64,000 nt of DNA from Candidatus Methanomethylicaceae archaeon (lineage in GTDB: Archaea > Thermoproteota > Methanomethylicia > Methanomethylicales > Methanomethylicaceae), in the NCBI GenBank assembly GCA_015660995.1, contig JACTUC010000003.1, positions 30,525-94,524 on the forward strand, in the 5' to 3' direction. The notes under the pieces were generated by a model. It was not told where the DNA came from, searched no databases, and saw only the letters and a list, made by a program, of their open reading frames with translations. Positions 1 to 57,681 of the stretch are shown piece by piece (positions within the stretch are counted from its first letter, which is position 1; every line of letters begins with the position of its first letter). The position numbers and the translations under genes are program-made.

Positions 1-395
1 TGACAGGCAAGAAAGCAGCAGACGTTGAGAGGCTTAAGGCGATGCTCAAAGAGATCGTGACTGAGATCGCGCGGGATTGCATAGAGGGGGGCGCCATGGC
101 AATAGGCCATGTCAAATCGCACCTCAAGACTCCATCCGGTTATGTAAAGGCAGATATCGTCCAGCTGAAGCAAGGAGCGTACGCCGAGGGCAACGTGGGA
201 AAGAGCGAGAGATCAGGCACTCTAATTATAAACTCCATAGTTCTGGGGCTTGACAAGGACAGAATCGCCGAAACTACACTGGAAGGTACCCAGAAGGTTT
301 TGAAGAAGTATAGTTTCTCTGCGAGCATTGAGGTCGAAAACCAGGATTTCCAATTAGATTCCAATGAGAATTCTAATAAGAAAATAGAAAAATAA
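1..395 (+). CDS. Hypothetical protein, 5'-partial (the reading frame is open from the window edge; the track's ATG at 42 is internal)
   Basis: In-frame codons without a stop from position 3 to the TAA at 393-395. Protein-like composition. No recognisable family. Confidence 0.4.
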   Translation, partial: TGKKAADVERLKAMLKEIVTEIARDCIEGGAMAIGHVKSHLKTPSGYVKADIVQLKQGAYAEGNVGKSERSGTLIINSIVLGLDKDRIAETTLEGTQKVLKKYSFSASIEVENQDFQLDSNENSNKKIEK

Positions 396-519
396 AAAAA
401 GGGTTAGGGGAAGATGCTCCTGACATGTTCTTCGTCGAGTTGCTTCCCGATTCTGCTCATTATCGCAGCAACCATGATTGACACTAGTACACCGACGAAG
501 AAGGGATAGACCAGTGTGA

Positions 520-1233
520 CTAGCGTTTGCTATAGCGTTTGTCGAGCTTGATGGCCTCTTCAATGAATCTTTCCCTTGCGCCTGGAGAAAATTTGTTTAT
601 CTTCTGGATCATTTCAATTGTCTTCATGTTCTTATTAAGAAGTTTAAGTGTGTTCATAGTCTTCATTATGTTATGAGTTAGGAATGGCTCGAGACCCTCA
701 TTCTTGGCGTAACCTTGCCGTACCATGGCATTCTCCATGGATAGTAGGGCAAAATGGTGGATCACCTGCACTGTCGCCATTGCCCTGTCATGCTCCTCGG
801 CGCTGACCTCCGTAACTCGCATCCCGGATCTAGTTAAAAGGTCAGTCATGATGGGCAGCCAAGGTCCTGAGCGGACGGGTATTACCATTGTGTTCCTGAT
901 CTTTACCCTTGGTGATGAGAAGAGAGGATGGATGCTAATGTAAAAAATTTGGTCTGGTAGGATTCTGCCTATCTTATCAACAACGCCGCACTTTACAGAG
1001 GATACATCAACTAAGAGGGATCCAGGTCGCATCTGCTGAGAAGTCTGCCTAGAAATCGGTAGCAGCACCTCGGTGGGGATTGTTAGGATGACAATGTCCA
1101 TCTCTGATAAGCCCTTTGCTCCGCAGCCTTTGATGCCCAATCTGTCTGCTATCTCATTCGCCCTGCTTGAGTCCCTGCTAGTTATAGTGAGGTCGCATGC
1201 ACTCCTAAGGAGTGTAGCCATGCACCTCCCCAT
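520..1233 (-). CDS. tyrA: Prephenate dehydrogenase (TyrA). The true start probably lies upstream of the first ATG.
   Basis: EHDRAMATVQVIHHF motif. The Rossmann G-T-G-R-M-G loop straddles the annotated ATG, and the preceding strand KVAIV is encoded upstream of it in frame. Last gene of the tkt-aro operon. TAG stop. Confidence 0.75.
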   Translation of the reverse strand: MGRCMATLLRSACDLTITSRDSSRANEIADRLGIKGCGAKGLSEMDIVILTIPTEVLLPISRQTSQQMRPGSLLVDVSSVKCGVVDKIGRILPDQIFYISIHPLFSSPRVKIRNTMVIPVRSGPWLPIMTDLLTRSGMRVTEVSAEEHDRAMATVQVIHHFALLSMENAMVRQGYAKNEGLEPFLTHNIMKTMNTLKLLNKNMKTIEMIQKINKFSPGARERFIEEAIKLDKRYSKR

Positions 1234-1247
1234 TCTTCCAGTCCCGA

Positions 1248-2345
1248 CTATTGCAACTTTGAGTAGCTTCCGAGTATCCTCAGAAATCTTGTCTTCCTCC
1301 TTACCTCTTTCAGCGCCAATACAATATTCTTATCGCTGAGACTACCCTCGAAGTCGAGATAGAAGTAATATTCCCAGCTCCTGGTGGGCATTGGGCGCGA
1401 CAAGACCATGGTAATGTTGACACTCTGCTTAGCGAACTCGCTTAATACGGCTGCGAGTGAACCGGGGACGTGCTCTAGGGCAAATATCGCTGAAGACTTT
1501 ACGCCAACTTTAGGAGGCTCGCCCTTGTGGATCGTAACAAACCGCGTATAGTTGTTTGGGGTGTCCTCAATACCAGCCTCATATATCTTGAGCCCATTCA
1601 GCTCTGCTGCGGCCTTGCTGGCTACGGCAGCGCCCTTCATGTCCCTAAGGACGTGCTCAGCAGCCCTTGCAGTTGATTCAGTAACAACAATATTCTTGTC
1701 GCTCAGATATTTCGTGATGTATCCGTCACATTGCGCTAAGGCTTGGGGGTGCGAGTAGATGTTCTCTATCTCGCTGAGCGAATTCACCTGCGGGTTTACG
1801 ATTAAGTTCAAAGTTATCCGGAGCTGGATCTCCCCTGTTATGGACACGGGATAGTCTATGAAGCAATCAAGAGTCTCGTTTACAGCGCCTTCTATGGTGT
1901 TCTCCAGGGGTACTACCCCAACGTCGCATCTTCCAATGTCCACCTCTATGAAAATCTTCTTTATTCGCCTGCATGGTGAGAACTTGGATGAGTTGCCGAA
2001 GGTAGAGTATGCTGCCTCATGCGAAAAGCTCCCAGCTGGTCCGAGGTATGCTACAGAGGTTGGCCGCTGGATGTTCCTGCACATGGATATGATCTCTCGG
2101 TAGACCTCCCTTATCCCCTCAGGCGGGGCTTCTTCGGAGGCCGAAGTCACCCTCTCTAAGACCTGGCTCTCCCTGGCCATGTCCAGCACTTCCATGTTAA
2201 GGGCAGACTTTATCTTCCCGATCTCCTTGCATGTTGCCACCCTTTCATTGAGCAGCCTCACAACCTCTTCATCTATCCTGTTTATTTTTTTCCTGGCATT
2301 ATCGAGACTCAAATTCTTCTCCACATCTTTCCCTTTTTCACTCAT
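1248..2345 (-). CDS. pheA: Bifunctional chorismate mutase / prephenate dehydratase (PheA) with C-terminal ACT domain
   Basis: N-terminal chorismate mutase helix (RIDEEVVRLLNER). Prephenate dehydratase motif AYLGPAGSFSHEAA. C-terminal ACT-like region. Confidence 0.85.
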   Translation of the reverse strand: MSEKGKDVEKNLSLDNARKKINRIDEEVVRLLNERVATCKEIGKIKSALNMEVLDMARESQVLERVTSASEEAPPEGIREVYREIISMCRNIQRPTSVAYLGPAGSFSHEAAYSTFGNSSKFSPCRRIKKIFIEVDIGRCDVGVVPLENTIEGAVNETLDCFIDYPVSITGEIQLRITLNLIVNPQVNSLSEIENIYSHPQALAQCDGYITKYLSDKNIVVTESTARAAEHVLRDMKGAAVASKAAAELNGLKIYEAGIEDTPNNYTRFVTIHKGEPPKVGVKSSAIFALEHVPGSLAAVLSEFAKQSVNITMVLSRPMPTRSWEYYFYLDFEGSLSDKNIVLALKEVRRKTRFLRILGSYSKLQ

Positions 2346-3439
2346 ATCTTTCCCTCAACTCTCCCAATTTTATGCACCCTAATCATTAAGTCAGCAAGGC
2401 ATGTAGCTACCATTGCCTCGACAACTGGGACGGCCCTGACCGCTATGCATGGATCGTGCCTTCCTTCAACCCTGATTTCCTTCTTCTTCATCGTAGAAAT
2501 ATCAACGCTCCTCTGCTTCTTTCCTATGGATGGTGTAGGCTTGAAGGCTACACGTAGGACAATCGGCATTCCGTTTGTGATGCCACCTAGAATGCCCCCA
2601 GAATTGTTGGACTGCGTAACTATGCGCCCGCCTTCAATGGCAAACTCGTCATTCGCCTCCGAACCCCGCTTCGAAGAAAGACCGAACCCTCCTCCGAACT
2701 CGATCCCCTTAACCGCTGGTATACTGAATATGCCGTGAGATATTACACTCTCCACCGAGTCAAAAATGGGTTCGCCTACTCCTACTGGCAGGCCAAGGAC
2801 CCTACACTCAACAGTCCCCCCAAGGGAATCATTCTCTGACTTCGCCTTCTCTAGCTCCTCGGACATCAGCGCAGAAACCTCCTTGTCAGCGCACCATATG
2901 GGGCTCTCCCTCGCCTTCGCTTCAAGCTCAGCATCTGGGATTTCTCCCTTGGCACGTACATCACCGACCTGCACGAGGTGGGCTATTATCTTCACTCCCC
3001 TCCTGGATAACAGCTTCTTAGCGATTGCCCCCCCCATCACCATGCCTGCAGTTATCCTGCCAGAGAAGAAGCCTCCACCCCTCCAGTCGTTGAACCCACC
3101 ATACTTGACGAACGCAGTGTAGTCTGCATGACTGGGGCGAGGCACCATCCTGTTCCGGTCATACCATGAGGAGTCAGTGTCTTCGTTGCTTATCATCATC
3201 ATTATGGGGCCGCCGTTGGTTCTATTATTAGTCAGTCCGCTCTCTATTCTGACCAGATCTCTCTCTTTTCTCGAGCTTGTGGCCTCCCTGCCCGGCTTCC
3301 TCCTGTCGAGCTCCCACTGGATGTCGTCCACACCTATCTCGAGACCCGGTGGGCATCCCTCCACCACCACACCGATGCATCTTCCGTGTGACTCGCCAAA
3401 AACTGTCATCCTGAACTCACTACCAATTCCGAAGCTCAT
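2342..3439 (-). CDS. aroC: Chorismate synthase (AroC)
   Basis: MSFGIGSEFRMTVFGESHG N-terminus. The internal ATG at 3439 gives an ATGA overlap with the aroA stop. The track ORF is N-extended to 3511. Confidence 0.9.
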   Translation of the reverse strand: MSFGIGSEFRMTVFGESHGRCIGVVVEGCPPGLEIGVDDIQWELDRRKPGREATSSRKERDLVRIESGLTNNRTNGGPIMMMISNEDTDSSWYDRNRMVPRPSHADYTAFVKYGGFNDWRGGGFFSGRITAGMVMGGAIAKKLLSRRGVKIIAHLVQVGDVRAKGEIPDAELEAKARESPIWCADKEVSALMSEELEKAKSENDSLGGTVECRVLGLPVGVGEPIFDSVESVISHGIFSIPAVKGIEFGGGFGLSSKRGSEANDEFAIEGGRIVTQSNNSGGILGGITNGMPIVLRVAFKPTPSIGKKQRSVDISTMKKKEIRVEGRHDPCIAVRAVPVVEAMVATCLADLMIRVHKIGRVEGKI

Positions 3440-4713
3440 TTTATCATCTCCACTTTTCCACCCATCCTCACCAGGTCCTCGAAGAACGATGGATAGCTCT
3501 TCGAGACACATTCCGCATTCTTTATGATGGTCTCACCCTCGGAGAATAGGGCTAGAATGGAACAGGCCATGGCGATGCGGTGGTCGTTGCTTGGATCGAT
3601 TATCGCGCCCTTGGTCATGCCGACTCCATTTATCACCATCTCATTCTCCCCAGTCTCTATCCTCCCACCCATTCTCATGGCTGTTTCTGCTATTGTAGCT
3701 ATCCTGTCGCTTTCTTTATACCTCAATCGCTTAATCCCCGTTATTCTAGTCTCGCCCTCTGCCCTCGATGCGACTGCTGCCAGAATAGGCACAAGATCCG
3801 GTATCTGTCTAGCATCTATTTCGATCCCCCTCAGAACTGAGGTCTCGGCTGTGACTGTATTGCCAGAGCAAGAGATTTTAGCCCCCATTCTCTGGAGTAT
3901 TTCTATCGCCGCGCTGTCCCCCTGCAATGATGGCAATTGAATCCCATCCACTAGGACCTTGCCACAAAGGATCCCCGCTGCCAGCATGAACGCAGCTGAG
4001 GAGAAGTCACCCTCCACGTGGTAGGAGAGAGGATGAAGGATCTGCCTTGATGGCACGCTGAACTCCCCCCTCCCAGGGTCAAATGCTACCTTAGCCCCAA
4101 ACTTATGTAAGATTTCCATGGTCATGTCAATATAATTTTTCGACTCTAGCGCGCTACTCAGCATGATTGCTGTGTCATTCCTTGCAAGAGTGCTCGAGAC
4201 GAGCAGGGAAGAGATGAACTGGGAGCTGACGTCACCCGGGATTGCAGCTGTCCCGCCCTCCATTCCTCCTCCCATTACCACGACAGGCGGGAAGCCGTTG
4301 CTCTTTGTGGAGAAACACTTCGCTCCAAGGGAATTCATAGCCTTGAGGAGATCGCCCATCGGCCTCCTCCTCAGCTGATCGTCGCCAGTAAGTACTGTTG
4401 CTCCATCAGCATGGGACGAGACTGCTGTGAAGAACCTCAGGGCAGTAGCCGATCCCCCGCAATCAACAACATCCTCTGGCACCTCGATCCTGCCTCCTGA
4501 AATGCTAAATCGGTCATCAAAATCAGTAACCCGCGCCCCTAGCATTCTTGCAGCGCGCAGGGCAAACAGGGCGTCCTCAGATCTCGATGGATTGACGATC
4601 TCTGTCTTGCCATCTGCAATAAGGGCGCAGACCACTGCTCTCTGGGTATAGCTCTTTGATGGCGGGGCAACTACCCTGCCGCTCAGTTCTGACTTTCTTA
4701 TCCTTGCATCCAC
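3436..4713 (-). CDS. aroA: 3-phosphoshikimate 1-carboxyvinyltransferase (EPSP synthase, AroA)
   Basis: PSKSYTQRA motif. Two-domain EPSPS architecture, 425 aa. Confidence 0.9.
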   Translation of the reverse strand: MDARIRKSELSGRVVAPPSKSYTQRAVVCALIADGKTEIVNPSRSEDALFALRAARMLGARVTDFDDRFSISGGRIEVPEDVVDCGGSATALRFFTAVSSHADGATVLTGDDQLRRRPMGDLLKAMNSLGAKCFSTKSNGFPPVVVMGGGMEGGTAAIPGDVSSQFISSLLVSSTLARNDTAIMLSSALESKNYIDMTMEILHKFGAKVAFDPGRGEFSVPSRQILHPLSYHVEGDFSSAAFMLAAGILCGKVLVDGIQLPSLQGDSAAIEILQRMGAKISCSGNTVTAETSVLRGIEIDARQIPDLVPILAAVASRAEGETRITGIKRLRYKESDRIATIAETAMRMGGRIETGENEMVINGVGMTKGAIIDPSNDHRIAMACSILALFSEGETIIKNAECVSKSYPSFFEDLVRMGGKVEMIK

Positions 4714-5652
4714 CTAAACACCCATCCTAGCCTTGTTACTGTTGATCTCGGTCCGGATTATGCTGAACCCCAAACCCCCCCAGCCATCTACAATTTGCCC
4801 CTCGAATTCCTTTGTAGAAACTGCGCAAATTGTTGGCCCCTTCCCGCAGAGGCCTGCAGTGATTGCCCCATTCTTCATTGCAGCCACAATAGGAGCAGGG
4901 TTGATCTTGAAGGCATGAGCCATTGCTAGGCCGTTGAGAAGCATTGCCTGCCAGTGCCTCCCCGCGAGTGCCTCCTTCATGGCAATTTCCGTCACCTCTG
5001 CATATTGACTGATGAAGGTCTTGTTCACCTCGCCGGAGTAGCGCCTCTCTTCTGGGACTAGAAATATGGCGCTCATTGGCTCTAGGTTGCAGCTCATAAT
5101 TATTATCCTCTTTTTATTATCAGTCATATGGAGCCCGCCCAGATAGCTAGCACAAGCGTCGTCAAAGGCGCCAGTGAGGCTTACCTTAGCTCTGAGGGAG
5201 GCAGCTACGCCTATTTTTATAATATCCATGTCATCCATTTTTTCGCCAATAGCATCCAGGGTTGCCAGAATTATGGCATTGGAGGCGGCGCTAGAACTCT
5301 TCATCCCACGTGCTATGGGGATCTCACTGCGGGTTCTGATCATCCCACCGTGTTTTAAGCCGAAGCTCTCAAGGGTCGCCCTGAAGGACTCGCTGGCAAG
5401 CTCTTTCCTCTCATTGATACCGCCTAAGATCTCCACTTCAATGGAAGGATCTTCTCTAACCTCGACCTCTGCGAAAGTCCTCAAGCCCACGCTGAAGGCT
5501 GCGCCTCTGCCGGAAGGCATCGCGTTCACTATTGTAGCCGCACCGAAGGCAATACCCTTCCCAATCCCTTTGCCTTTGTTTTTGCCTTCAATTTGAGACT
5601 CGCTGCTTACCTCCCGCTCCATGACATGTGTTGTCATTATGACAGCTTCCAC
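4714..5652 (-). CDS. Archaeal-type shikimate kinase (GHMP kinase family). The start may be the ATG at 5637 (TAATG overlap with aroE).
   Basis: GAATIVNAMPSGRGAAF GHMP-like motif typical of archaeal shikimate kinase. Position between aroE and aroA. Confidence 0.75.
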   Translation of the reverse strand: MEAVIMTTHVMEREVSSESQIEGKNKGKGIGKGIAFGAATIVNAMPSGRGAAFSVGLRTFAEVEVREDPSIEVEILGGINERKELASESFRATLESFGLKHGGMIRTRSEIPIARGMKSSSAASNAIILATLDAIGEKMDDMDIIKIGVAASLRAKVSLTGAFDDACASYLGGLHMTDNKKRIIIMSCNLEPMSAIFLVPEERRYSGEVNKTFISQYAEVTEIAMKEALAGRHWQAMLLNGLAMAHAFKINPAPIVAAMKNGAITAGLCGKGPTICAVSTKEFEGQIVDGWGGLGFSIIRTEINSNKARMGV

Positions 5653-6497
5653 CCTGGTTGCAATGCCGCATCCCCCGAAAGCGCACGCCTCATTACATCA
5701 ATGGGCGCTGGCTCCCCGAGCCATATTTCAAAGGCTCTTGCCCCCTGCTGGACCAGCATCTCAAGACCGCTTATTATCTTGCAGCCCCTGAGTCTGGCTA
5801 GCCTCATCAGTTCGGTCTCGAGCGGGTTGTACACCAGATCCATCACTGTGCAGTTGGCGCCCAAGTCCTCAGCTTTAAGCAGACTCACATTTATCTTAGG
5901 CCACATTCCCACTGGTGTGCAATTGATTATGATATCTGCCCTTGCCTCCCTGCACCCGCTCAATGGTATCGCATGAGCAGGTGCGAGAGCAGAGACTTCG
6001 CGGGCAAGGCTCAGAGCCTTGGAGAGGGACCTCCCAGAAATGGCCAGTTCAGCGGGATTCCCCTTCTGGGCGATCTCGAAGGCGACTCCCCTGGCCGCCC
6101 CACCATAACCAAGGATGAGCACGTTTGCCCCCGATAACCTCCCTCCGCCAGCTTCAAGCGCTTTAAGCGCACCTGCCCCGTCCGTGTTGTAACCAATAAG
6201 CTCACCAGCACTGTTCGAGATAACATTCACCGCCCCTGAAAGCCTGGCGCTCTCGTCTATACTGTCGAGGTGCTCCTTCACGCTTACCTTATGCGGGATA
6301 GTCACGTTGCAGCCCAGGAAGCCGAGAGCTTTTAAGCCTTTTATCGTAATGCCGAGGTCTTCCTTCCTTACTCTAAAAGCCAGATAGACGCAATCCTTTC
6401 CCATCTCTCTAAAGGCGGCATTGATCATCTTTGGGCTCAAGGAGTGCTCTACCGGGTCCCCTATGAGGCAGAAGAGCTTAGTTTGGTTCCCTCTCAT
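5637..6497 (-). CDS. aroE: Shikimate 5-dehydrogenase (AroE)
   Basis: LIGDPVEHSLSP substrate motif. GYGGAARG NAD(P) motif. The ATG at 6497 overlaps the aroD stop (ATGA). Confidence 0.85.
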   Translation of the reverse strand: MRGNQTKLFCLIGDPVEHSLSPKMINAAFREMGKDCVYLAFRVRKEDLGITIKGLKALGFLGCNVTIPHKVSVKEHLDSIDESARLSGAVNVISNSAGELIGYNTDGAGALKALEAGGGRLSGANVLILGYGGAARGVAFEIAQKGNPAELAISGRSLSKALSLAREVSALAPAHAIPLSGCREARADIIINCTPVGMWPKINVSLLKAEDLGANCTVMDLVYNPLETELMRLARLRGCKIISGLEMLVQQGARAFEIWLGEPAPIDVMRRALSGDAALQPGWKLS

Positions 6498-7159
6498 CCC
6501 AGAAACACCTCCTGAGTGCGCCTCATCGTTTGCAGGTCCACCTGCCCAGGGGCAGCCTCCTTGCCTTCCTTGAGCGATGCATAGGTCCACTCCGAGCCGA
6601 AGAATGGTGCAAGGACCCTTGAGATCTTGCCAAGTGGGCCATAGCAGAAGACGATTCTACGCCCTGTGATGGAATCACTGGCGCCCAATGCTACCAGGTT
6701 GTCCTCAAAACGGGTTGCGGGCATCACTACCTTGAAAACAAAATTGCCATTCATTGCTAATATGAAATCCCGCATGTCTTTTACCTTAAGTAACCTCTGA
6801 CTGTGCCAAGAAATTACTGGTTGGGCGCCGCTGCTCTTTATTCTCCCCAGGCACTCCTCGAATAGGCCAGGATCCATCTCCTTATCGATGTCAACATACT
6901 CTGCAAACTTAGATGCCTCCGCAAGGAGCCTTGCCCGCTCCTTGTCATTCCCCTGGTAATGCCCAAAGATACTGTCTGGCATTATGGTTGCGACCTTCGG
7001 AATCTTGATGGATTCGAGCCTCCTGAAAAGGCCGCTTATTTTTTCTTCAGTTGGCCTTTCAAGGCAGTCCAGCCTTATCTCTATGAGGTCTGCCCCCTTC
7101 ACTTGGGCTTCCATCGCTGCAGAGATCATCACTTCCTCGCTATTCTCAGCGAGGCTCAC
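6494..7159 (-). CDS. aroD: 3-dehydroquinate dehydratase, type I (AroD)
   Basis: ADLIEIRLD motif and TIM-barrel DHQase I length. Confidence 0.8.
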   Translation of the reverse strand: MSLAENSEEVMISAAMEAQVKGADLIEIRLDCLERPTEEKISGLFRRLESIKIPKVATIMPDSIFGHYQGNDKERARLLAEASKFAEYVDIDKEMDPGLFEECLGRIKSSGAQPVISWHSQRLLKVKDMRDFILAMNGNFVFKVVMPATRFEDNLVALGASDSITGRRIVFCYGPLGKISRVLAPFFGSEWTYASLKEGKEAAPGQVDLQTMRRTQEVFLG

Positions 7160-7178
7160 ACAGATTTTTGGTCTAATC

Positions 7179-8270
7179 CTAAAGGCACCCCCTCATTGCA
7201 TCCGTGGCAGTCTTCTTTGGCGGATCTGAGACGATCGTGCCGTTCCCGAGACCGTTTGGAAGGGCAAACCTCAACCTACCGGCTTCTGCCTTTTTGTCAT
7301 GACCCATGAACCTGATGAGGTCTCTATGGTTGACGCCTTTGAGGCGAATGGGCAGGCCATAGCTGACTATCAGCGCTTCCAAACGCTCAACGTCCTTCTT
7401 GGAAACCATTCCAAGCGCCTCTGCCAGCCTGATCTCTCCTGCCATTCCAACTGCAATAGCCTCGCCATGGCTCAAGCCATGGTATTTCATAGCTGCCTCC
7501 ACAGCATGGCCAAAGGTGTGCCCGAAATTCAGAAGCGCCCTTAAACCTGATTGATCCCGCTCGTCCCTAGCGACTATGCCCGATTTTAGCTCAGTTGCCC
7601 AAGAGACTGCCCTCACCATTGCCCCTTCTTCGAGCCCTAGGATCGACACCCTTTCCTTCTCAAGGAATTCCAGTAAGCGGAGGTCCATAATGGCTGCGTA
7701 CTTGATAAGCTCAGCTACGCCGCATCTTACCTCCCTTGTCGGAAGCGTCTTTAGTAATGAAACATCGGAGAGGACGAGACTTGGTTGATGGAATGCCCCC
7801 ACGATATTCTTTGCCTCTGGGAGGTTCAACGCTGCCTTACCGCCGATGCTGCTGTCTACTTGTGCCAAGAGCGTTGTTGGAATTTGGACGAGCCTCACCC
7901 CCCTCATGTATGTTGCAGCTACGAACCCGGCGAGGTCACCAACGCACCCTCCCCCCAGAGCAATTACGATGGTGCCCCTCCCAACCTTCATTCTCAAGAG
8001 CTGTTCCATTACATGCTGGTATGTTCTAATGGTCTTCGCGCCCTCGCGGTCAGGGACTAGTATGGTCTCTGAAGGGATCCCACTGCCAGCCAAGCTCTCC
8101 CTAACTGCCCGACCATATAGGTCATCCACTATTGCTACGGCAAGGGTCGCAACCTTATCTCCTAGGTAGAGGTGAGCAACTTGCCTTCCTAGGTCTTTGA
8201 TGAGCTTCTTGCCAACTAGTATGGGATAGCTCCTCTCTCCAAGATCGACGGTAATGGACTGCGAGCTCAT
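7179..8270 (-). CDS. aroB: 3-dehydroquinate synthase, bacterial type (AroB)
   Basis: GGGCVGDLAGF glycine loop. HTFGHAVE metal-binding motif. 363 aa. Confidence 0.85.
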   Translation of the reverse strand: MSSQSITVDLGERSYPILVGKKLIKDLGRQVAHLYLGDKVATLAVAIVDDLYGRAVRESLAGSGIPSETILVPDREGAKTIRTYQHVMEQLLRMKVGRGTIVIALGGGCVGDLAGFVAATYMRGVRLVQIPTTLLAQVDSSIGGKAALNLPEAKNIVGAFHQPSLVLSDVSLLKTLPTREVRCGVAELIKYAAIMDLRLLEFLEKERVSILGLEEGAMVRAVSWATELKSGIVARDERDQSGLRALLNFGHTFGHAVEAAMKYHGLSHGEAIAVGMAGEIRLAEALGMVSKKDVERLEALIVSYGLPIRLKGVNHRDLIRFMGHDKKAEAGRLRFALPNGLGNGTIVSDPPKKTATDAMRGCL

Positions 8271-9241
8271 GATCTGCCGACTGCCTTCGCTATTCTAGAT
8301 ATATCCTTCATTGCTTGCCTGAACTCATCTGGAGTCAGTGACTGCGGTCCATCGCTTAGCGCCAACTCTGGCCTTGGATGAACCTCTATGAGGAGCCCAT
8401 CGGCGCCAGCTGCAATGGCGGCCTTCGATGCGGCTATCACAAGGTCCCGCCTGCCAGTTGCGTGACTTGGATCGGCGATCACCGGAAGGTGGCTAATTAA
8501 CTTGGCAAGTGCTATTCCTGGAGTATCTAGGATGTTTCTTGTCGCAGTCTCGAAGGTTCTCACACCCCTCTCGCAGAGTATGACATTCCAGTTGCCCTCT
8601 AGAAGAAGGTACTCAGCAGCCTGCATCCACTCATCGATGGTGGCTGATATGCCCCGCTTCAGGACTACGGGCAGACCAGATCTGCCTGCAGCCCGAAGGA
8701 GATCAAAGTTCTGCATGTTCCTTGCCCCTATTTGAATGGCATCTGCATACCTAGTGACCAGAGCGATTTGCTCAGGGTTGGTGGCTTCCGTGAGGACCGG
8801 GATCCCCAGTTCGTCAGAGGCATCCCTAAGGATCTTGAGACCCTCCTCACCGAGACCTTGGAATGAGTAGGGCGAAGTCCTGGGTTTGAATGCGCCTCCC
8901 CTCAACACACTGGCTCCAGCTGCCTTCACTAGCTTTGCAGTCTCCATAAGCTGCTGCCTAGTTTCGACGGCACATGGACCAGCGCAGACAACTATCTTCT
9001 TCCCTCCAAACTCTACCTTGCCTATCTTCACCTTTGATCCATTGGGTGCCATCTCCCGGCTAGCGAGCTGTGCATTCCCTTTGATCTCCAAGCAACTACC
9101 TTTCGGGAGCGTGAGCTGGATCCCATCAGGGAGTTTAGAGTTGACTACGTAGATTATCCCATCTCTTGCTTGGACTTTCCTGAATTTTCCGTTCAACGCC
9201 CTCTCCAATTCTTCTGATTTTCGTTGTAGCTTGATTATCAT
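8267..9241 (-). CDS. 3-deoxy-7-phosphoheptulonate (DAHP) synthase, type I-beta (KDO8PS-like) with N-terminal extension
   Basis: VVCAGPCAVE...KPRTSPYSFQGLG motif family. Overlaps aroB start and tktB stop. Confidence 0.8.
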   Translation of the reverse strand: MIIKLQRKSEELERALNGKFRKVQARDGIIYVVNSKLPDGIQLTLPKGSCLEIKGNAQLASREMAPNGSKVKIGKVEFGGKKIVVCAGPCAVETRQQLMETAKLVKAAGASVLRGGAFKPRTSPYSFQGLGEEGLKILRDASDELGIPVLTEATNPEQIALVTRYADAIQIGARNMQNFDLLRAAGRSGLPVVLKRGISATIDEWMQAAEYLLLEGNWNVILCERGVRTFETATRNILDTPGIALAKLISHLPVIADPSHATGRRDLVIAASKAAIAAGADGLLIEVHPRPELALSDGPQSLTPDEFRQAMKDISRIAKAVGRS

Positions 9242-10152
9242 GCAGCCTTCCTCCCAACTATGTTCATCATTACATCACCTATGGACTCGGCGACCAGCCC
9301 GTGCTTCCTGAGGAGGTCCCTCTGGGGACCAGACTCACCAAATACATCCTTTACGCCTACGCGTGTTATTGGGACTGGATACTCGCTCGAGAGGAGCTCG
9401 GCTATGGCGCCCCCCAGACCGCCAATGACGCTGTGCTCCTCCACGCATACCACGAGTCCCGTCTCTCGTGCAGCTGCCACTATTGCCTCCTCGTCGAGTG
9501 GCTTGACAGTCGGGACGTGGACAACCTTTGCGCTCAATTTCGTTGCTTTGACGGCATCCAGAACCTCTGATGTCATTGCGCCGTTCGAGAAGACCGTGAT
9601 GTCGTGGCCATCTGCAACGGTGGCAGCCTTGCCGAGCCGAAAGACACAATCGCCCTCAAGAAACTTCAGGGATTCGTCTCTCCCTAAGCGCATGTAGGCA
9701 GGTCCCTTCATCTGAACTATTGCTCTTGTTGCCTCCGCTATCTCCTGCCTGTCCCCTGGCACCACTACAGTCATGTTCGGGAGAACTCTCATCAAGCAGA
9801 CATCCTCCAGAGACTGGTGAGACCCCCCCTCGTCTGAGGCAGAGAGACCCGCGTGTGTGCCCACCATCTTTACGTTGAGGTTTGCCCTGGCGATCGTACT
9901 CCTAATCTGTTCCCAAGCCCTCATGAGGAATGGCGCGAAGACAGCCACGACTGGGATGTCCCCGCTGAGGGCGAGCCCTGCAGCTATCCCTATCATGTCC
10001 TGCTCGCTTATGCCTACATTGAAGAAGCGACTGGGGTACGCTTCCGCGAACTTTGAGACGCCGGTGGGCTTTGCAACATCCGCTGTCAGGGCCATCAAGG
10101 TATGGTTCTCCTCGCCCAGTGAGACAAGGGTGTCGCCGAAGATCGCCCTCAC
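9238..10152 (-). CDS. Transketolase, C-terminal (pyrimidine-binding) subunit
   Basis: Split archaeal transketolase, 304 aa. GISEQDMIGIAAGLA motif. Confidence 0.85.
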   Translation of the reverse strand: MRAIFGDTLVSLGEENHTLMALTADVAKPTGVSKFAEAYPSRFFNVGISEQDMIGIAAGLALSGDIPVVAVFAPFLMRAWEQIRSTIARANLNVKMVGTHAGLSASDEGGSHQSLEDVCLMRVLPNMTVVVPGDRQEIAEATRAIVQMKGPAYMRLGRDESLKFLEGDCVFRLGKAATVADGHDITVFSNGAMTSEVLDAVKATKLSAKVVHVPTVKPLDEEAIVAAARETGLVVCVEEHSVIGGLGGAIAELLSSEYPVPITRVGVKDVFGESGPQRDLLRKHGLVAESIGDVMMNIVGRKAA

Positions 10153-11007
10153 TCAAGAAGCCTCCTCTAGCTCGGCCAGTGCCTCAAGGTACTCTTCGTT
10201 GCTGAAGCGCATCTTATGCCCCTTGTTCGTGCCTTCCATGAAGGTGACACCCTTCCCCTTCATGGTGTTAGCTATTATCGCCGCAGGGCCATCTGAGAGC
10301 TCACAGAGGTCCAATGCGTCGAGGATCTTTTCAGGATCATGCCCGTTCACAACGTACGTTTGCCACCCGAAGCTCTCTATCTTACTCTTAAGGGGCGCCT
10401 TCCGCTTCACCTCTTCGGTCCTGTCGTCGAGCTGCCAGCCATTCCTATCTATTATGAGGACCAGGTTATTCAGTCTCAAGTGCGCCGCTGTCATGAGCGC
10501 CTCCCAGACCTGTCCCTCGTCGCACTCGCCATCTCCCACAAGCACATAGATGCGGTTCTTGCTCCCCCGATGCCTTGCAGCTAAGGCCATGCCTATGCCA
10601 ATGGAGAGGCCCTGCCCTAGTGAACCGGAGGGTGCGTCCACACCGGGTGTCCTTAGGTCAGGGTGCCCCTGAAGCCGCGAGTTGAGACTCTTAAGGGTCC
10701 CAAATTCCTCCTTCGGAAAGTATCCTGCCTCGGCGAGGACTGCATATAGGGCTGGTGCTGCGTGGCCTTTGCTCAAAATGAAACGGTCGCGGTCGCTCCA
10801 ATCCGGCCTATAGGGGCTATGGCGCATCTTCATGAAGTAGAGCGTGGCGATGATGTCTATGCATGACAGAGAGGCTCCAACATGGATACCTGGTAAGGTG
10901 CTTGCTGTCATCTCCAGGACCGACTTCCGAATTTTCTTTATCTTTTCCTTCAGCATCTGTATCTCTACTAAGTACCTTTGATCCATTTCTTCCTGCAATG
11001 CCCTCAT
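10153..11007 (-). CDS. Transketolase, N-terminal (thiamine-PP-binding) subunit. The start is taken at the internal ATG; the track ORF extends to a TTG at 11055.
   Basis: GHAAPALYAVLAEAGY and GSLGQGLSIGIGMA TPP-binding motifs. Confidence 0.85.
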   Translation of the reverse strand: MRALQEEMDQRYLVEIQMLKEKIKKIRKSVLEMTASTLPGIHVGASLSCIDIIATLYFMKMRHSPYRPDWSDRDRFILSKGHAAPALYAVLAEAGYFPKEEFGTLKSLNSRLQGHPDLRTPGVDAPSGSLGQGLSIGIGMALAARHRGSKNRIYVLVGDGECDEGQVWEALMTAAHLRLNNLVLIIDRNGWQLDDRTEEVKRKAPLKSKIESFGWQTYVVNGHDPEKILDALDLCELSDGPAAIIANTMKGKGVTFMEGTNKGHKMRFSNEEYLEALAELEEAS

Positions 11008-11055
11008 TGACAGAACCTCCTTTTGCACTTGGGGCTCGCGACAGTAATGAGCCAA

Positions 11056-11239
11056 AGGAGATTTTTTATTAAGATTTCTTTTTCGGATGATGTTTTATTT
11101 ACTGAAATCCTACCATTGCCAATGTCGGGTTTTATAGATATTGGAATTGGCTCACTCTGACCACCCCTTGGATTAGCTCCAATTATTCTGAGGAGGCTGA
11201 GGTTGGAGACTTGCTGGACCAGGAAGACCAGATCGATCA
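11056..11239 (-). promoter_or_regulatory. Putative promoter/5' leader of the 11-gene tkt-aro-phe-tyr operon
   Basis: AT-rich 184-bp gap upstream of tktA. TATA-like TAAATAAAAC and CTTAATAAAAAAT on the minus strand. Confidence 0.3.
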
Positions 11240-12442
11240 TTAGACCAGCCTCCTCATGTCCAGGACCCTCTTGGCCTTCCCCTCGGATCTGGGGAGGCTT
11301 CCCTGGGGCAAAACCACCACATTGGTCCGGAGGAGCGTGGAGTCCTTGATCTGTTCGAATATCTCGACCCTGAGGCGTTCCATGGTAGCTTGGTCCTTGG
11401 AAAAGCCATTGCTGACCTCCAGCTTCACAGCTATGTCGTCTATGCCCGTGAGCTCGATCAGGAAGTTGCCATTGGACTCCCTGTGCGAGGCGACGATCCT
11501 TTCTATGTTGGAAGGATAGACCCCGATGCCCCGTACCTTGATCATGTCATCGAGCCTCCCGGTGAACCAGTCGATACGCCGGTGGCTTCTGCCGCAGTCG
11601 CAGGGGCCGTCGACGATACGAGTCACGTCCCCTGTCCTGTAGCGGAGCAGGGGCATGGCCTCCCGGCTCAGGGGGGTCAGGACCAGCTCGCCCTCCTCCT
11701 CCTCACCGAGGGTCTCGCCTGTCTTCGGGTCTATAACCTCTGCGATGAAGTGGTCCTCCCAGACATGGAGACCCGATTTGGCGCTGCACTCGATGGCCAC
11801 GCCCGGGCCGCCCATCTCGGCCAGCCCGTAGTTGTTGAAGGCCTCAATGCCCAGGCAGTCCTCGATCTTGCCTCGCATGGCTTTGGTCCAGGGCTCGGCG
11901 CCAAGAACCCCGATCCTGATCTTGAGCGACTCCCGCAGCCCAGGCTGACCTTCGAAGGCCTCAATCATGCGGATGGCAAAGGACGGGATTGCGTGGAATA
12001 TGGTAACGCCGAAATCTCTCATCACCTCCAGCTGCTTCTCAGCATTGGCCGAGCCTAGTGGGATCACAGTGAGACCAAGCCGCTCTGCCCCTTGGATGAG
12101 ACCCAAGCCCCCCGTGAAGAGCCCCTGGGAGGTGGTGTTCTGGAAAATATCCCCCCTAGCGGCCCCTGCGCATGCCAAGCCCCTTGCCATCAGCTCAGAC
12201 CAAGTCCTCAGATCGCCATTGGTGTAAAAAGTCGTTATGGGCTTGCTGGTGGTGCCCGACGAGGTGTGAACTCTCACTACACTTGATAGGGGGACTGCTA
12301 GGGCGCTGAATGGGAAGCTGTCAGCGATATCCTTCTTAGTTGTGAAGGGCAGCTTGGTCAGATCTTTTAGTCCATTGAAGTTTTTCAATTTCTTTTCTCT
12401 TAGCCTCTGCCTCAAGAACGGGACGTTTTGAGCCCTCTTCAA
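11240..12442 (-). CDS. Phenylacetate-CoA ligase (PaaK)-family adenylate-forming enzyme. It is translatable only from an internal TTG, and the N-terminal region appears frameshifted.
   Basis: Strong similarity to PaaK across the central domain (NVPFLRQRL..LPFTTKKDI..SSGTTSKPI). Homologous N-terminal sequence continues upstream in frame without a start codon. Confidence 0.75.
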   Translation of the reverse strand: MKRAQNVPFLRQRLREKKLKNFNGLKDLTKLPFTTKKDIADSFPFSALAVPLSSVVRVHTSSGTTSKPITTFYTNGDLRTWSELMARGLACAGAARGDIFQNTTSQGLFTGGLGLIQGAERLGLTVIPLGSANAEKQLEVMRDFGVTIFHAIPSFAIRMIEAFEGQPGLRESLKIRIGVLGAEPWTKAMRGKIEDCLGIEAFNNYGLAEMGGPGVAIECSAKSGLHVWEDHFIAEVIDPKTGETLGEEEEGELVLTPLSREAMPLLRYRTGDVTRIVDGPCDCGRSHRRIDWFTGRLDDMIKVRGIGVYPSNIERIVASHRESNGNFLIELTGIDDIAVKLEVSNGFSKDQATMERLRVEIFEQIKDSTLLRTNVVVLPQGSLPRSEGKAKRVLDMRRLV

Positions 12443-12855
12443 GGCAATAAGTAGTTTCTTGTTTTGCAGTTTTTCTATCTCTGCATGGTTTGCTTTTTCG
12501 AGTTGCGGTTGGAAGCATCCATTAAAAGGTGTAAACGCAACCCCTTCTTATGGTAGTCTGCACTATCCATGCACCTCAAGAATTCTTTGTTTTTCTGGAA
12601 GGTTATTTATGGGGTGACCTAGGGGCGCGTCAATAAACGCAATTCCTTCTTCGATTTTGCACCCTATTGTCCTCCAGATTACTCTCATCACAACGCGCTT
12701 TTCATATTTAAAGGTTGTGGGGCGGTATGCCCACCCTTTAGATTTTCAATGGCTCAGCTGAATCGTCATCTGGTTGGAGATGGAAAATTTGCTATTTACA
12801 GAGCCCCATTAATAAGGAAAAAGACCTATTTGGAGAATATGGAAGCTGTGGTCCA

Positions 12856-13533
12856 ATGGATCTGAGAGAGATCATGAAGCTGCTCGAAAAGGAGAGCAAG
12901 CCAGAGAACAGGGAGGGGATGGCAAGGTTCGGAATTAACGTGGAGCGCGCCTATGGGGTTTCCATCCCCAGCCTGAGGAAGATGGCAAAGGAGCTTGGAA
13001 AGAGTCACGCGCTTGCCCAAGAGCTGTGGGGATCTGGCGTGCATGAGTCCAAGATACTTGCGTGCCTTGTCGACGATCCCCTAAAAGTTACCGAAGGGCA
13101 GATGGAGAAGTGGGTCATGGATTTTGACTCATGGGACATCTGTGACCTCTGCTGCAGCAACCTGTTCGATAGGACACCCTTTGCGTTCAGGAAGGCCTTC
13201 GAATGGAGCTCGAGGGATGAGGAATTCGTGAAACGGGCAGGGTTCGCCCTGATGGCTGCGCTCTCAGTGCACGATAAGAAGGCGGGTGACGAGAAGTTCC
13301 TGGAGTTTCTTCCCGTCATCAAAAGAGAGGCCACTGACCAAAGGAACTTCGTTAGGAAGGCTGTTAACTGGGCGCTGCGCCAGATAGGGAAGCGTAATGC
13401 TAAGCTTAACGAAGCCGCCATCCAGACTGCCAAGGAGATACAAGCAATAGACTCAAAGACCGCGAAGTGGATAGCGTCGGACGCGCTTCGCGAGCTGACG
13501 GGAAGGGCAGTGAGGTCTAGGATCTATGAGTAG
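12856..13533 (+). CDS. DNA alkylation repair protein (AlkD/AlkC-like HEAT-repeat glycosylase family)
   Basis: 225 aa, all-helical HEAT-like. Matches the AlkD-like 'DNA alkylation repair enzyme' family pattern (W..S...W..C). Confidence 0.65.
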   Translation: MDLREIMKLLEKESKPENREGMARFGINVERAYGVSIPSLRKMAKELGKSHALAQELWGSGVHESKILACLVDDPLKVTEGQMEKWVMDFDSWDICDLCCSNLFDRTPFAFRKAFEWSSRDEEFVKRAGFALMAALSVHDKKAGDEKFLEFLPVIKREATDQRNFVRKAVNWALRQIGKRNAKLNEAAIQTAKEIQAIDSKTAKWIASDALRELTGRAVRSRIYE

Positions 13534-21481: not shown

Positions 21482-21615
21482 AAGAATCCTCCTAAGGATA
21501 TAATATATTGACTGAGTATGACGGGTATTGTTTTACAATCCGTTTAATTAAGGTTAGCGGTGATTTCGTTCACTTTTTAAGGGTTAAGGTCAGATAATTA
21601 GACGGGGTCGAGCAC

Positions 21616-22038
21616 TTGAAAGTAATGGATAATGTCGACAGGAAACTGATCGCTGCCCTCAAACAGAACTCAAGGGTGCCCTTCACAAAGATAGCAGAGG
21701 AGGTGGGCCTCTCCGAAGCTGCAGTCAGGAAGAGGGTGGAGAGGCTCCAGTCTGGGGGAGTAATAAAGAGATTCACGCTGGAGGTCGAGACCGGTGAGAG
21801 TGTCAAGGCAGCGGTGCTGGTTTCAGTGCAACCGTCGCACCCCAACCCATCTGTCGCGCAGGCGGTAAAGAAGGTGCAGGGGGTCGAACTCGTCTATGAG
21901 GTTGCTGGGGAGGTTGACATAATCGCTATAGCCTCAGGGGGCAGCATTCAAGAAGTAAATAAGTACATTGACGAGATCAGGCGTATCGATGGCGTAGCGA
22001 AGACAAACTCCATGATAGTACTCCGCTCGTGGGTTTGA
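21616..22038 (+). CDS. Lrp/AsnC-family transcriptional regulator (likely regulator of the adjacent LysW-pathway cluster)
   Basis: N-terminal HTH (KIAEEVGLSEAAVRKRVERL) plus C-terminal RAM domain. Immediately upstream of lysX. Confidence 0.8.
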   Translation: MKVMDNVDRKLIAALKQNSRVPFTKIAEEVGLSEAAVRKRVERLQSGGVIKRFTLEVETGESVKAAVLVSVQPSHPNPSVAQAVKKVQGVELVYEVAGEVDIIAIASGGSIQEVNKYIDEIRRIDGVAKTNSMIVLRSWV

Positions 22039-22152
22039 ATGTCGAACCAAATAATCCTTATATCGAACCTTTTTAGTGCACTTTTTGCATAGAAATGCTT
22101 AAATAACTTCGTTATTCGAATCTATCTATTTGAAAATAGGGGTTGCAGGAAC

Positions 22153-23007
22153 ATGCCGAAGCTCAACATATTGTTTGATCATATGAGGTGGGAGGAGAAG
22201 GCTATCTACAGCGCCTGCGAGAAGCGTGGAGTGGACTTTTCCCTCGTTGACGCCGAGAAGATATTCTTTGATCTTACTTCAGATAGCAAACCGAAGGGGA
22301 TTGGCGACGTCGTGCTACAGAGGTGCGTCGGGCACTTCAGGGGGCTTCATGCCACAGCAGCCCTTGAGAGCTACGGGGTGACGGTCGTCAATAGGTACAG
22401 CGTCTCGGAGCTCTGCGGCAACAAGGTCTTGAGCACCCTGTTGTTCAAGAAGAGCAGAATACCCACCCCAAGGACTTACATGTCGTTTGCGGTTGAGTCG
22501 ACGCTCAACGCGCTTCAGGAGCTTGGCTACCCCGCCATACTGAAGCCTGTAGTGGGGAGCTGGGGAAGGCTTGTCTCGCTCGTACAGGACCCAACCGCTG
22601 CGGTCGTTGCGCTCGAGCACCGGGAGATGATGTTTCCTCTCTACCAGATCTACTATGCGCAGGAGATGGTCAAGAGGCCCCCAAGGGACCTGAGGGTCTT
22701 CGTGATCGGCGACGATGTGCCTGTTGCGATCTACAGAGTCAACGAGACTGGTGACTGGAGAACCAACACAGCAAGGGGAGGCAAGGTGGAGAACTGCCCC
22801 GTAACGGCTGAGATAAGGGAGCTTGCGCTCAAGGCAGCAGCAGCCGTAGGTGGCGGGGTCTTCGGGGTTGACATGATGGAGTGCAACGGCGGGCTCACGG
22901 TCCATGAGATCAACAGCACCGTTGAGTTTAAGAATACAGTGCCGGCAACAGGTGTTGACATACCAGGCATGATAGTCGAGTATGCGCTAGGGGAGGCAAA
23001 GAGGTAA
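22153..23007 (+). CDS. lysX: RimK-type ATP-grasp ligase LysX/ArgX (LysW-amino acid ligase)
   Basis: ATP-grasp fold, 284 aa. Clustered with argC/argB/argD/argE homologues in LysW-pathway order. Confidence 0.8.
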   Translation: MPKLNILFDHMRWEEKAIYSACEKRGVDFSLVDAEKIFFDLTSDSKPKGIGDVVLQRCVGHFRGLHATAALESYGVTVVNRYSVSELCGNKVLSTLLFKKSRIPTPRTYMSFAVESTLNALQELGYPAILKPVVGSWGRLVSLVQDPTAAVVALEHREMMFPLYQIYYAQEMVKRPPRDLRVFVIGDDVPVAIYRVNETGDWRTNTARGGKVENCPVTAEIRELALKAAAAVGGGVFGVDMMECNGGLTVHEINSTVEFKNTVPATGVDIPGMIVEYALGEAKR

Positions 23008-23008
23008 A

Positions 23009-51030: not shown

Positions 51031-51469
51031 CTAGAGTCTTGAGGAACGTTCTTATCTTTGAGAGCATTACCTTGGCCTCCTCCTCGTTGCCAGGATAGGG
51101 GACTTTGATGAACGGGATCTTCTTCTGTGTAATCAGGTATATGAGGAACTCGTTAGTCCTTGCACAACTGGCGCACCCGAACAGCGCCTCGGACTCCTCC
51201 ACAATTATGGCGGCATCTGCCTCCTCGACCAGCGGGGCCATGAGCGCCAGTCGCCCCCTTACTCCTGATGGAACCTCTATGGCGACCCACTTGAGCCCCC
51301 GCCTCGGGAAGTCAGGGGTAATGTTCATAGGAGGCGAGTCGAGCTCGGGCTTGTTCAGGTTCTTTGACACCTCTTCACCGAGCCCCAATGGGGTATGACC
51401 CTCCCTCTTTACGAGATCGTAGAGTATTAGGCTATTGGGCGGGAATATGAATATCTTGGCCACTCGCAT
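50999..51469 (-). CDS. Uncharacterized protein co-transcribed with mcrC (candidate methanogenesis-associated protein)
   Basis: Strong SD-like GGAGGAG directly upstream of the ATG at 51469. Overlaps the mcrC 3' end by 38 nt. Contains a FGCASCARTNE motif. Confidence 0.4.
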   Translation of the reverse strand: MRVAKIFIFPPNSLILYDLVKREGHTPLGLGEEVSKNLNKPELDSPPMNITPDFPRRGLKWVAIEVPSGVRGRLALMAPLVEEADAAIIVEESEALFGCASCARTNEFLIYLITQKKIPFIKVPYPGNEEEAKVMLSKIRTFLKTLGDKNGNTRNS

Positions 51470-57680: not shown

Positions 57681-57681
57681 A

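Follow-up and report, generated by a model that had tools for sequence, protein, structure and literature searches.

The 64,000-nt stretch of Candidatus Methanomethylicaceae DNA analysed here (the window) carries, in one compact run, the genes leading from transketolase through the shikimate pathway to phenylalanine and tyrosine, with the canonical 3-deoxy-D-arabino-heptulosonate 7-phosphate (DAHP) synthase and AroB among them. This raises the question of where such an operon came from in a lineage bearing methyl-coenzyme M reductase (MCR), and of what controls it. On comparing the locus with those of relatives, we found that the operon is shared by them and is preceded by a conserved leader. 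We consider it probable, at roughly 70%, that an operon with a conserved leader is the best explanation of the locus as a whole.

A sequence-only reading of this DNA had claimed eleven genes in a single run on one strand. Searches with Pfam and NCBIfam recovered all of them, contiguous and co-oriented on the minus strand at 520-11007. In the direction of transcription the order is tktN-tktC-DAHP synthase-aroB-aroD-aroE-aroK(GHMP)-aroA-aroC-pheA-tyrA, the pheA product combining chorismate mutase (CM), prephenate dehydratase (PDT) and ACT domains. Start codons were set by upstream Shine-Dalgarno (SD)-like motifs, homologous N-termini and independent gene calls. The unit is composed as follows:

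10153-11007, minus strand: tktN, N-terminal, thiamine pyrophosphate-binding half of transketolase (PF00456); its N-terminus aligns with those of relatives and ATG 11007 is preceded by GGAGGT
9238-10152, minus strand: tktC, C-terminal half of transketolase with pyrimidine-binding and C-terminal domains (PF02779, PF02780)
8267-9241, minus strand: type I-beta DAHP synthase (NF006421, 424 bits, cutoff 335; TIGR01361, 374 bits, cutoff 268)
7179-8270, minus strand: aroB, type I 3-dehydroquinate synthase (TIGR01357, 364 bits, cutoff 305)
6494-7159 (GTG call) or 6494-7177 (probable ATT start), minus strand: aroD, type I dehydroquinase (PF01487)
5637-6497, minus strand: aroE, shikimate dehydrogenase (TIGR00507, 262 bits), with an ATGA overlap with aroD
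4714-5637, minus strand: aroK, archaeal GHMP-type shikimate kinase (TIGR01920, 245 bits, cutoff 127), with a TAATG overlap with aroE
3436-4713, minus strand: aroA, 5-enolpyruvylshikimate-3-phosphate synthase (TIGR01356, 412 bits), whose GTG start abuts the aroK stop
2342-3439, minus strand: aroC, chorismate synthase (PF01264, 435 bits; TIGR00033, 428 bits), with an ATGA overlap on each side
1248-2345, minus strand: pheA, chorismate mutase-prephenate dehydratase-ACT protein (CM_2, PDT and ACT domains; NF008865, 250 bits)
520-1233, minus strand: tyrA, prephenate dehydrogenase (PDH_N, PDH_C), with ATG 1233 as the called start
381-400, minus strand: oligo-T tract (T7, T5, T4), about 120 nt past the tyrA stop

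The split transketolase supplies erythrose-4-phosphate (E4P); DAHP synthase, AroB, AroD, AroE, the GHMP kinase, AroA and AroC lead to chorismate; and the CM-PDT-ACT protein and TyrA form phenylpyruvate and 4-hydroxyphenylpyruvate. The operon has no aminotransferase gene of its own for the final transamination to Phe and Tyr, the aminotransferase being encoded outside it. At 38345-39247 the window harbours a class IV (IlvE-like) aminotransferase, the only candidate in the window for this last step besides the class III enzyme of a lysine/arginine cluster. Both DAHP synthase and AroB score above their curated cutoffs, so the proposed canonical route stands; AroD reached 116.5 bits with Pfam (above the cutoff of 22.2) and 93 with NCBIfam (below the cutoff of 139). 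The ACT domain of PheA is predicted to mediate feedback inhibition by Tyr or Phe. The oligo-T tract, the strongest cluster of coding-strand T-runs in 300-12900, is likely the terminator of the transcription unit.

The ten junctions comprise five ATGA overlaps, one TAATG overlap, two abutting pairs (TGA-GTG and TAG-GTG) and two short gaps. The gaps, at aroB/aroD and pheA/tyrA, exist because no canonical start codon is present where homology demands one. Together, gene content and packing support the idea of a tightly packed unit running from E4P supply to Phe and Tyr. In Haloferax, gene pairs with ATGA or TGATG overlaps are translationally coupled by termination-reinitiation (Huber et al. 2019, PMC6728339), and by analogy the stop/start overlaps of this operon would act in the same way. 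One boundary had to be corrected. The end at 11239 had been taken as the start of the first transketolase gene; tktN starts at ATG 11007, as in the relatives, and the last 232 nt (11008-11240) form a leader region.

The relatives' loci were fetched through their DAHP synthase proteins, which are 61-79% identical to that of the window. This gave ten further Methanomethylicia loci (including L007, L008, L089-L092 and L113-L115), and all ten contain the same eleven genes in the same order with different flanking genes each time; L115 ends at a contig edge after aroA. Among the matches listed by a scan of genome contigs with a DAHP synthase alignment, almost all were bacterial (the scan supplied L009 and L071), and the lineage was compared via protein look-ups instead. 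The metagenome-assembled genome (MAG) of a Korarchaeota member (L116) shows the near-identical order tktN-tktC-DAHP synthase-aroB-aroD-aroE-aroK-aroA-aroC-CM-tyrA. In Thermoproteus tenax, split tktA/tktB genes (TTX_1753/1754) are clustered with aro genes, the route from E4P and phosphoenolpyruvate (PEP) is used, and the aspartate-semialdehyde pathway is absent (PMC3189178); the aro operon TK0271-TK0262 of Thermococcus kodakarensis likewise includes an E4P-forming step (PMC6737238). The operon of the window resembles these clusters in having a split transketolase beside DAHP synthase, AroB and other shikimate genes, and in using E4P and PEP. It differs from them in that pheA and tyrA belong to the same unit of 11 cistrons, and in that it has neither a Tar-type regulator gene nor the operator TGGACA-N8-TGTCCA, a leader being found in that position. 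Thus, what had been regarded as exceptional proved to be standard for the lineage, an outcome that the sequence-only reading had itself listed as counting against it, and judged by these comparisons the operon is lineage-typical and not a recent bacterial import.

The leader was analysed by comparing 260 nt upstream of tktN across the relatives. This comparison revealed a class-wide arrangement consisting of a promoter, an invariant block, a short open reading frame (sORF), a covarying hairpin and a long open frame that overlaps the tktN start. In the window its parts lie at:

11004-11240, minus strand: leader frame A, called as a 78-aa open reading frame (ORF), overlapping tktN by ATGA and a paaK-like gene by TAATG
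11132-11165, minus strand: invariant block GGTGGTCAGAGTGAGCCAATTCCAATATCTATAA, which holds sORF B and the SD-like GGTGGTC
11155-11132, minus strand: sORF B, GTG AGC CAA TTC CAA TAT CTA TAA, encoding (M)SQFQYL-stop, 7 codons with one Phe and one Tyr
11105-11131, minus strand: degenerate remnant of the hairpin

The block, with the consensus GGTGG(T/C)(C/T)A(G/A)AGTGAGCCAATTCCAATATC, is about 30 nt long and invariant throughout almost all of the class. Ten of the eleven protein-retrieved loci share its 20-nt core exactly, L115 having three changes, and the core occurs once per locus (in the window at 11137-11156). When metagenomes were scanned with this 20-mer, 20 contigs were found, and tktN followed 140-233 nt downstream in all 18 with enough sequence. 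The stop of the sORF is UAA, UGA or UAG at the same codon, depending on the clade, and the Leu codon before it is CUA, CUU or CUC; in L115 the Phe and Tyr codons are exchanged, giving (M)SQYQFI-stop. CAA, UAU and CUA are minor codons and UUC is the major one, which is not decisive. A BRE/TATA (B recognition element/TATA box) promoter, TTGCCCAAAAnnTTTAATA, is conserved in the relatives 25-31 nt upstream of the block and is gone in the window. A leaderless start at the first GUG was considered and is unlikely, the L115 sequence having a stop two codons on. Searches of the leader with Rfam (E <= 10) and ARAGORN gave no match, and a scan for sigma-70 promoters and intrinsic terminators, a method unsuited to archaea, remained at chance level.

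Directly after the sORF stop, the relatives contain a hairpin whose sequence differs between clades. Both sides change in six of its eight pairs, 89% of the cells are paired, and the hairpin reaches a covariation score of 0.405, compared to 0.187 for shuffled alignments (none of 500 reached 0.405) and at most 0.136 for slid partners. The folding energies in the relatives range from -14 to -28 kcal/mol. In one metagenome contig (L100, JGI24721J44947_10025586), a 38-nt tandem duplication of the hairpin region breaks the otherwise conserved phase between block and tktN; it may be an assembly artefact or a natural variant.

Frame A is free of stops from the block to the stop at the tktN start in all 21 non-redundant loci, while the two other frames of the leader contain 2-6 and 1-5 stops. 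Shuffling gave a chance of 0.03-0.27 per locus for such an open frame, and the product over approximately 11 mutually unalignable clades is about 1e-13. For most sequences, the differences in leader length are multiples of three, and the junction with tktN is ATGA, TGATG or TAGATG in nearly all loci, with an overlap of up to 23 nt in L115. Within clades, substitutions are distributed over the codon positions 141:170:147, without bias, and there is no amino-acid conservation beyond the block. On the evidence of these alignments, frame A is kept translatable and its peptide is not conserved. We therefore rejected the 78-aa ORF as a conserved protein. The leaders of L007 and L111 are lengthened in multiples of three by 9-nt units repeated in tandem (GCGAGGTCC and GCGAGGTCT), located some 40-70 nt ahead of tktN, and frame A stays open. 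The way in which frame A ends on the tktN start is like that of the coupled Haloferax overlaps (PMC6728339); it is different in that, outside the window, the upstream frame has no canonical start and no conserved peptide. In six loci a TAA stands in frame A immediately 5' of the block. Since a canonical start is also missing, ribosomes would have to enter frame A within the block, and if both frames are used, the fixation of each single nucleotide in the block would be accounted for.

Based on these observations, we tentatively propose that the leader is a translation-dependent switch, which we regard as the most likely mechanism even at somewhat less than even odds. Ribosomes would load at the SD-GUG. 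A fraction of them would go on in the long frame, entering at AUU or AUA or reinitiating at the NUA or UUG codon that overlaps the sORF stop. Ribosomes in the long frame would melt the hairpin and pass to tktN by termination-reinitiation, and the Phe and Tyr codons would tie the choice of entry, or formation of the hairpin, to the supply of aromatic aminoacyl-tRNA.

Several points weigh against the switch. It presumes a single operon transcript and translation of the leader, both of which we infer from sequence. Frame A is without a canonical start in most lineages, the exceptions being ATG 11240 in the window and perhaps L008, and the block contains no slippery heptamer X XXY YYZ that is canonical or consistent across clades. 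The sORF has a single Phe and a single Tyr codon among its seven, and classical leader peptides have runs; read in the long frame, the Phe/Tyr exchange of L115 is a synonymous change (ATT to ATA and vice versa) and so alone is no proof of selection for aromatic codons. RNAalifold and inspection revealed no mutually exclusive antiterminator, only a 5' invariant hairpin and the hairpin after the sORF. In the window, the remnant of the latter folds with -3.3 kcal/mol (z = +0.7), and the U4-U5 runs behind the hairpin, present in some clades, are weakly developed in the clade of the window. As the exact 20-mer served to pick the 20 metagenome loci, an unbiased sample is provided by the 11 protein-retrieved loci alone. 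Finally, TATA-like boxes are present about 60 nt upstream of tktN in the window, L090 and L091. It is possible that they mark a second promoter, in which case the sORF and hairpin would belong to a separate small transcript.

How do other mechanisms account for these features? In a classical attenuator, stalling on the Phe or Tyr codon of the sORF would place the ribosome over the 5' arm of the hairpin and prevent termination; with ample Phe and Tyr the ribosome would move off, the hairpin would form and transcription would stop at the U-tract. Such a model draws on the position of a conserved sORF, containing Phe and Tyr codons, ahead of an operon for these two amino acids, on a hairpin that is backed by covariation and begins 3-8 nt past the Tyr codon, inside the ribosome footprint, and on the U4-U5 runs after it in several clades. 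The layout is indeed like that of pheL, trpL and the leaderless polycysteine sORF attenuators of mycobacteria (bioRxiv 10.1101/834739), where a very short ORF with codons for the end product lies near the 5' end of the operon mRNA and a hairpin follows. It differs from them in its single regulatory codons instead of runs, in the lack of an antiterminator (no conserved pairing between the sORF and a hairpin arm was found across the relatives) and in the overlapping second frame, open and stop-start coupled to the first enzyme gene; moreover, it is archaeal. An attenuator leaves the long open frame to tktN unexplained, and the U-tracts are weak in the window's clade. Archaeal termination relies on oligo-T and not on hairpins, which also speaks against it. 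We consider attenuation in this form rather unlikely.

A hungry-codon switch would account for the long frame differently. A shortage of Phe- or Tyr-tRNA would make a ribosome pause at C CAA UUC or C CAA UAU and slip by -1 into the long frame, in which it would pass through the hairpin and couple to tktN; with ample supply it would stop after seven codons. The long frame is indeed offset by -1 from the sORF and lacks its own start codon, the Phe and Tyr codons are each embedded in a repeated CCAAU(U/A) context, after the shift the A site would hold an Ile codon (AUU or AUA), the hairpin follows about 5-8 nt downstream as at -1 frameshift sites, and use of both frames accounts for the complete nucleotide invariance. 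Since re-pairing from CAA to CCA is poor, no X XXY YYZ heptamer exists and the model is purely inferential, we think it improbable. A +1 path of the prfB type was also tried and rejected: it does not hold from clade to clade, and stops appear early in the +1 frame. About as improbable is an ordinary small protein, or a block that is a DNA operator or belongs to an independent small RNA gene and is merely syntenic with the operon. Here one can point to the 78-aa ORF called in every assembly of the species, a 57-aa ORF in L008, the promoter conserved upstream of the block in relatives and the direct repeat CCAAT-N-CCAAT, which could bind a protein. A small protein is at odds with the missing amino-acid conservation beyond the block, the lack of codon-position bias and the missing canonical start in most lineages, and an operator leaves the open frame, the in-frame indels and the covarying hairpin unexplained.

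A protein regulator is known to act on aro genes in another archaeal group: in Thermococcus kodakarensis the Tar protein regulates them, and its operator, the palindrome TGGACA-N8-TGTCCA, has been described there. We found this exact palindrome upstream of the tkt-aro operon of Korarchaeota L116 (3168-3187), and in no Methanomethylicia locus. This suggests that Methanomethylicia have a different regulator at the position of the Tar operator, which would fit a regulatory replacement, and that Tar-type regulation may extend beyond the Thermococcales. In the same Korarchaeota locus, the tktN ORF is called with a winged-helix-like N-terminal extension (3301-3560) and the shikimate kinase is of the SKI (bacterial) type.

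In the window itself the leader switch looks bypassed, to judge from its comparison with the relatives. Here the leader is abutted by a further gene:

11240-12442, minus strand: paaK-like aryl-CoA ligase (AMP-binding, AMP-binding_C_2), chained to the leader frame by the TAATG overlap

With this gene abutting the leader, the promoter is lost, the long frame has gained ATG 11240 and the hairpin has decayed. Coupling of this ATG to the paaK-like gene, a decayed hairpin and a lost promoter are what would be expected if constant translation of the long frame had made the switch redundant. The gene neighbours the operon only in the window's species; it is absent upstream of tktN in the relatives and lies outside the conserved operon. 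It matches a phenylacetate-CoA ligase (4R1L) with 365 bits, query residue 21 aligning to chain residue 53. Its start region is disrupted: beyond the called TTG 12442, the part homologous to the N-terminus (FQPQLEKANHAEIEKLQ...) continues as an open frame to 12547 but offers no canonical start, and an ATG at 12522-12520 misses that frame by one nucleotide. The start region could contain a fixed 1-nt frameshift or be decoded in a non-standard way. In methanogens, aryl-CoA ligases act in the salvage of aryl acids to aromatic amino acids, and the adjacency to the aro genes may be functional.

Starts that are not canonical also characterize two genes inside the operon. One nucleotide past the TAG of aroB, the ATT at 7177-7175 is the probable start of aroD; the GTG at 7159 chosen by the gene callers cuts off beta-strand 1. 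This ATT lies exactly four codons ahead of the ICVS motif in 8 of 12 species, and L008 has an ATG at the same site. In the window, L092, L109 and L114 there is no ATG, GTG or TTG upstream of the first beta-strand (RPKICVS), and as the start site has no canonical codon, gene callers shorten AroD. The layout of the aroB/aroD junction (7159-7181) suggests that AroD synthesis begins at AUU or by relaxed reinitiation once aroB has ended. In tyrA, the called ATG 1233 falls within the Rossmann GxGxxG motif (KVAIVGTGR-M-G), and the protein probably begins further upstream. The reading frame, which overlaps the 3' end of pheA at a -1 offset, is open to 1329 in the window. It runs open for 28 codons upstream in the window and for 68 codons in L007. 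No canonical start is found upstream in the clade of the window and L007; in other clades there is an ATG 27 codons upstream, with a 79-nt overlap with pheA. An ATT is present at 1287-1285 in the window. The clade of the window shares an ATT 14 codons upstream, preceded by AGGAGG, and a C TCA AAG motif at the junction is common to the window, L007 and L092. The junction DNA, AGCTACTCAARGTTGC, is nearly invariant in seven species, which is consistent with dual coding. An AUU start, a PheA-TyrA trans-frame fusion and a truncated enzyme are all possible. For annotators this calls for caution: the shortened aroD and tyrA calls and the "78-aa hypothetical protein" are likely artefacts of assuming canonical starts.

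What, then, does the DAHP synthase say about the origin of the pathway? The metal ligands C90, H260, E286 and D297 are invariant. Residues 1 to about 55 form a short ferredoxin-like N-domain with the topology beta-alpha-beta-beta-(alpha)-beta (strands at 2-5, 21-25 and 28-32, helix at 10-16) in an AlphaFold2 model with a pLDDT of 90.7; a Pfam scan gave no match of PF18152 to this domain. With Foldseek the best match of the model was the full-length DAHP synthase of Thermotoga maritima (1RZM; TM 0.87 over 338 columns), an enzyme inhibited by Tyr and Phe via its N-terminal ferredoxin-like domain. The two share the two-domain architecture and the catalytic Cys, His, Glu and Asp. They differ in that the N-domain here is some 15 residues shorter and escapes the PF18152 model, and in that the barrel here is nearer to that of Aeropyrum pernix (58-61%) than to that of T. 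maritima (48-54%). Feedback inhibition by Tyr or Phe through the N-domain is likely, as predicted from the model. At the sequence level, the barrel is 64-67% identical to uncultured bacterial enzymes and 61% to those of Korarchaeota and Aeropyrum, and phmmer against the PDB placed the A. pernix enzyme first with 322 bits, followed by T. maritima with 302.

One possibility, which we hold to be doubtful, is that an exchange with bacteria, at the base of the Methanomethylicia or earlier, involved the DAHP synthase gene alone, barrel and ferredoxin-like domain together, which replaced an unregulated archaeal enzyme in situ. The Korarchaeota operon has, at the same position, a 273-aa DAHP synthase lacking the N-domain, the closest sequences outside the class are bacterial enzymes with PF18152, and the fold match to T. 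maritima covers the full length. Against this, the identity margin is small, about 5 points; phmmer ranks A. pernix ahead of T. maritima; and the N-domain is shorter than in bacteria and undetected by PF18152. Far less probable still is the original proposal, in which the canonical pathway in an MCR-bearing archaeon reflected a Thermoplasmata/Archaeoglobi-like background or the acquisition of a whole bacterial-type pathway. It could draw on the DAHP synthase, with its bacterial best matches beyond Methanomethylicia, its higher barrel identity to bacteria than to archaeal outgroups and its T. maritima-like architecture. The rest of the operon argues otherwise. The GHMP shikimate kinase and the splitting of transketolase are archaeal traits, AroB stands at an equal distance from its homologues in Korarchaeota (43.3%) and bacteria (43.7%), the gene order is common to Korarchaeota and tkt-aro clustering occurs in Thermoproteus, the operon is kept across the class down to 61% DAHP synthase identity, and the DAHP synthase is only slightly bacterial. 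The host, moreover, is a Methanomethylicaceae MAG of the Thermoproteota/TACK (formerly "Verstraetearchaeota"). Identical DAHP synthase and AroB proteins are found on 21 contigs, including one of assembly GCA_049514975.1, with the NCBI name Candidatus Methanomethylicaceae archaeon, and the nearest named homologues are from Methanomethylicus, Methanosuratincola and "Verstraetearchaeota", thus from the same class. Because of the class-wide, Korarchaeota and Thermoproteus clusters, the canonical route is what a Thermoproteota background predicts.

Classical methanogens reportedly follow another route, from aspartate-semialdehyde and 6-deoxy-5-ketofructose-1-phosphate via 2-amino-3,7-dideoxy-D-threo-hept-6-ulosonate (ADTH) with AroA' and AroB', as is said to go back to White in 2004 and Porat in 2006. 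It feeds the same steps by AroD, AroE, GHMP-type AroK, AroA and AroC in MCR-bearing archaea, and is different from the operon here, which uses DAHP synthase and AroB with E4P from transketolase. Among approximately 55 ORFs of the window scanned with Pfam, none was an ADTH-route gene (AroA'/AroB', the type II dehydroquinate synthase PF01959). Searches of the literature on the distribution of ADTH enzymes gave nothing directly relevant.

The description of the lineage as MCR-bearing is borne out by taxonomy and by McrC, A2 and marker genes in the window. The subunit genes mcrA, mcrB and mcrG themselves are not in the window, a Pfam scan of ORFs having found none within the 64 kb. The relevant features are located in a marker/MCR-activation cluster at 50521-59589 that extends over both strands, with DUF2102 and DUF2113 also on the plus strand:

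50521-51030, minus strand: ORF without assignment
50999-51469, minus strand: DUF2112, methanogenesis marker protein
51432-52115, minus strand: MCR_C-like ORF
52569-54095, plus strand: 508-aa ORF without a Pfam match
55055-56002, plus strand: McrC (PF04609, 355 bits)
55968-57680, plus strand: A2-type ABC ATPase
57673-59589, plus strand: RACo-like reductive activator of corrinoid proteins

The window also contains, at 21600-27177, a LysW-type lysine/arginine cluster typical of TACK/Thermoproteota (LysX ATP-grasp, ArgC, ArgB, class III aminotransferase LysJ and M20 deacylase LysK). A small Lrp/AsnC-like ORF at about 21625-22037 precedes it, pointing to regulation by a protein and not by a leader. 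Leaders analogous to that of the aromatic operon were looked for upstream of ilvB, ilvC, leuA and carA in the relatives and of lysX in the window, and nothing convincing was found; lysX has the Lrp-type regulator gene upstream.

In summary, the operon only confirms that a TACK-type canonical shikimate route has been kept in non-euryarchaeal methanogens, and is not to be taken for a case of horizontal transfer. The leader is a new comparative observation, not previously described, which the alignments support well. Literature searches found no example of leader-peptide attenuation or ribosome-dependent amino-acid sensing in archaea, and nothing directly relevant on Methanomethylicia transcriptomes. 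In archaea transcription and translation are coupled, and it is tempting to speculate, if with considerable reserve, that Methanomethylicia regulate their aromatic operon by a translated RNA leader that senses Phe and Tyr via ribosomes on the sORF, be it by attenuation or by a starvation-induced shift or reinitiation. If true, this would be, as far as literature searches show, the first ribosome-mediated amino-acid-sensing leader described in Archaea. The leader is compact and class-wide, and it has clear mutable parts, namely the sORF codons, the frame A stop and the hairpin. The Methanomethylicia lineage now has cultured members, in which the proposal would be directly testable.

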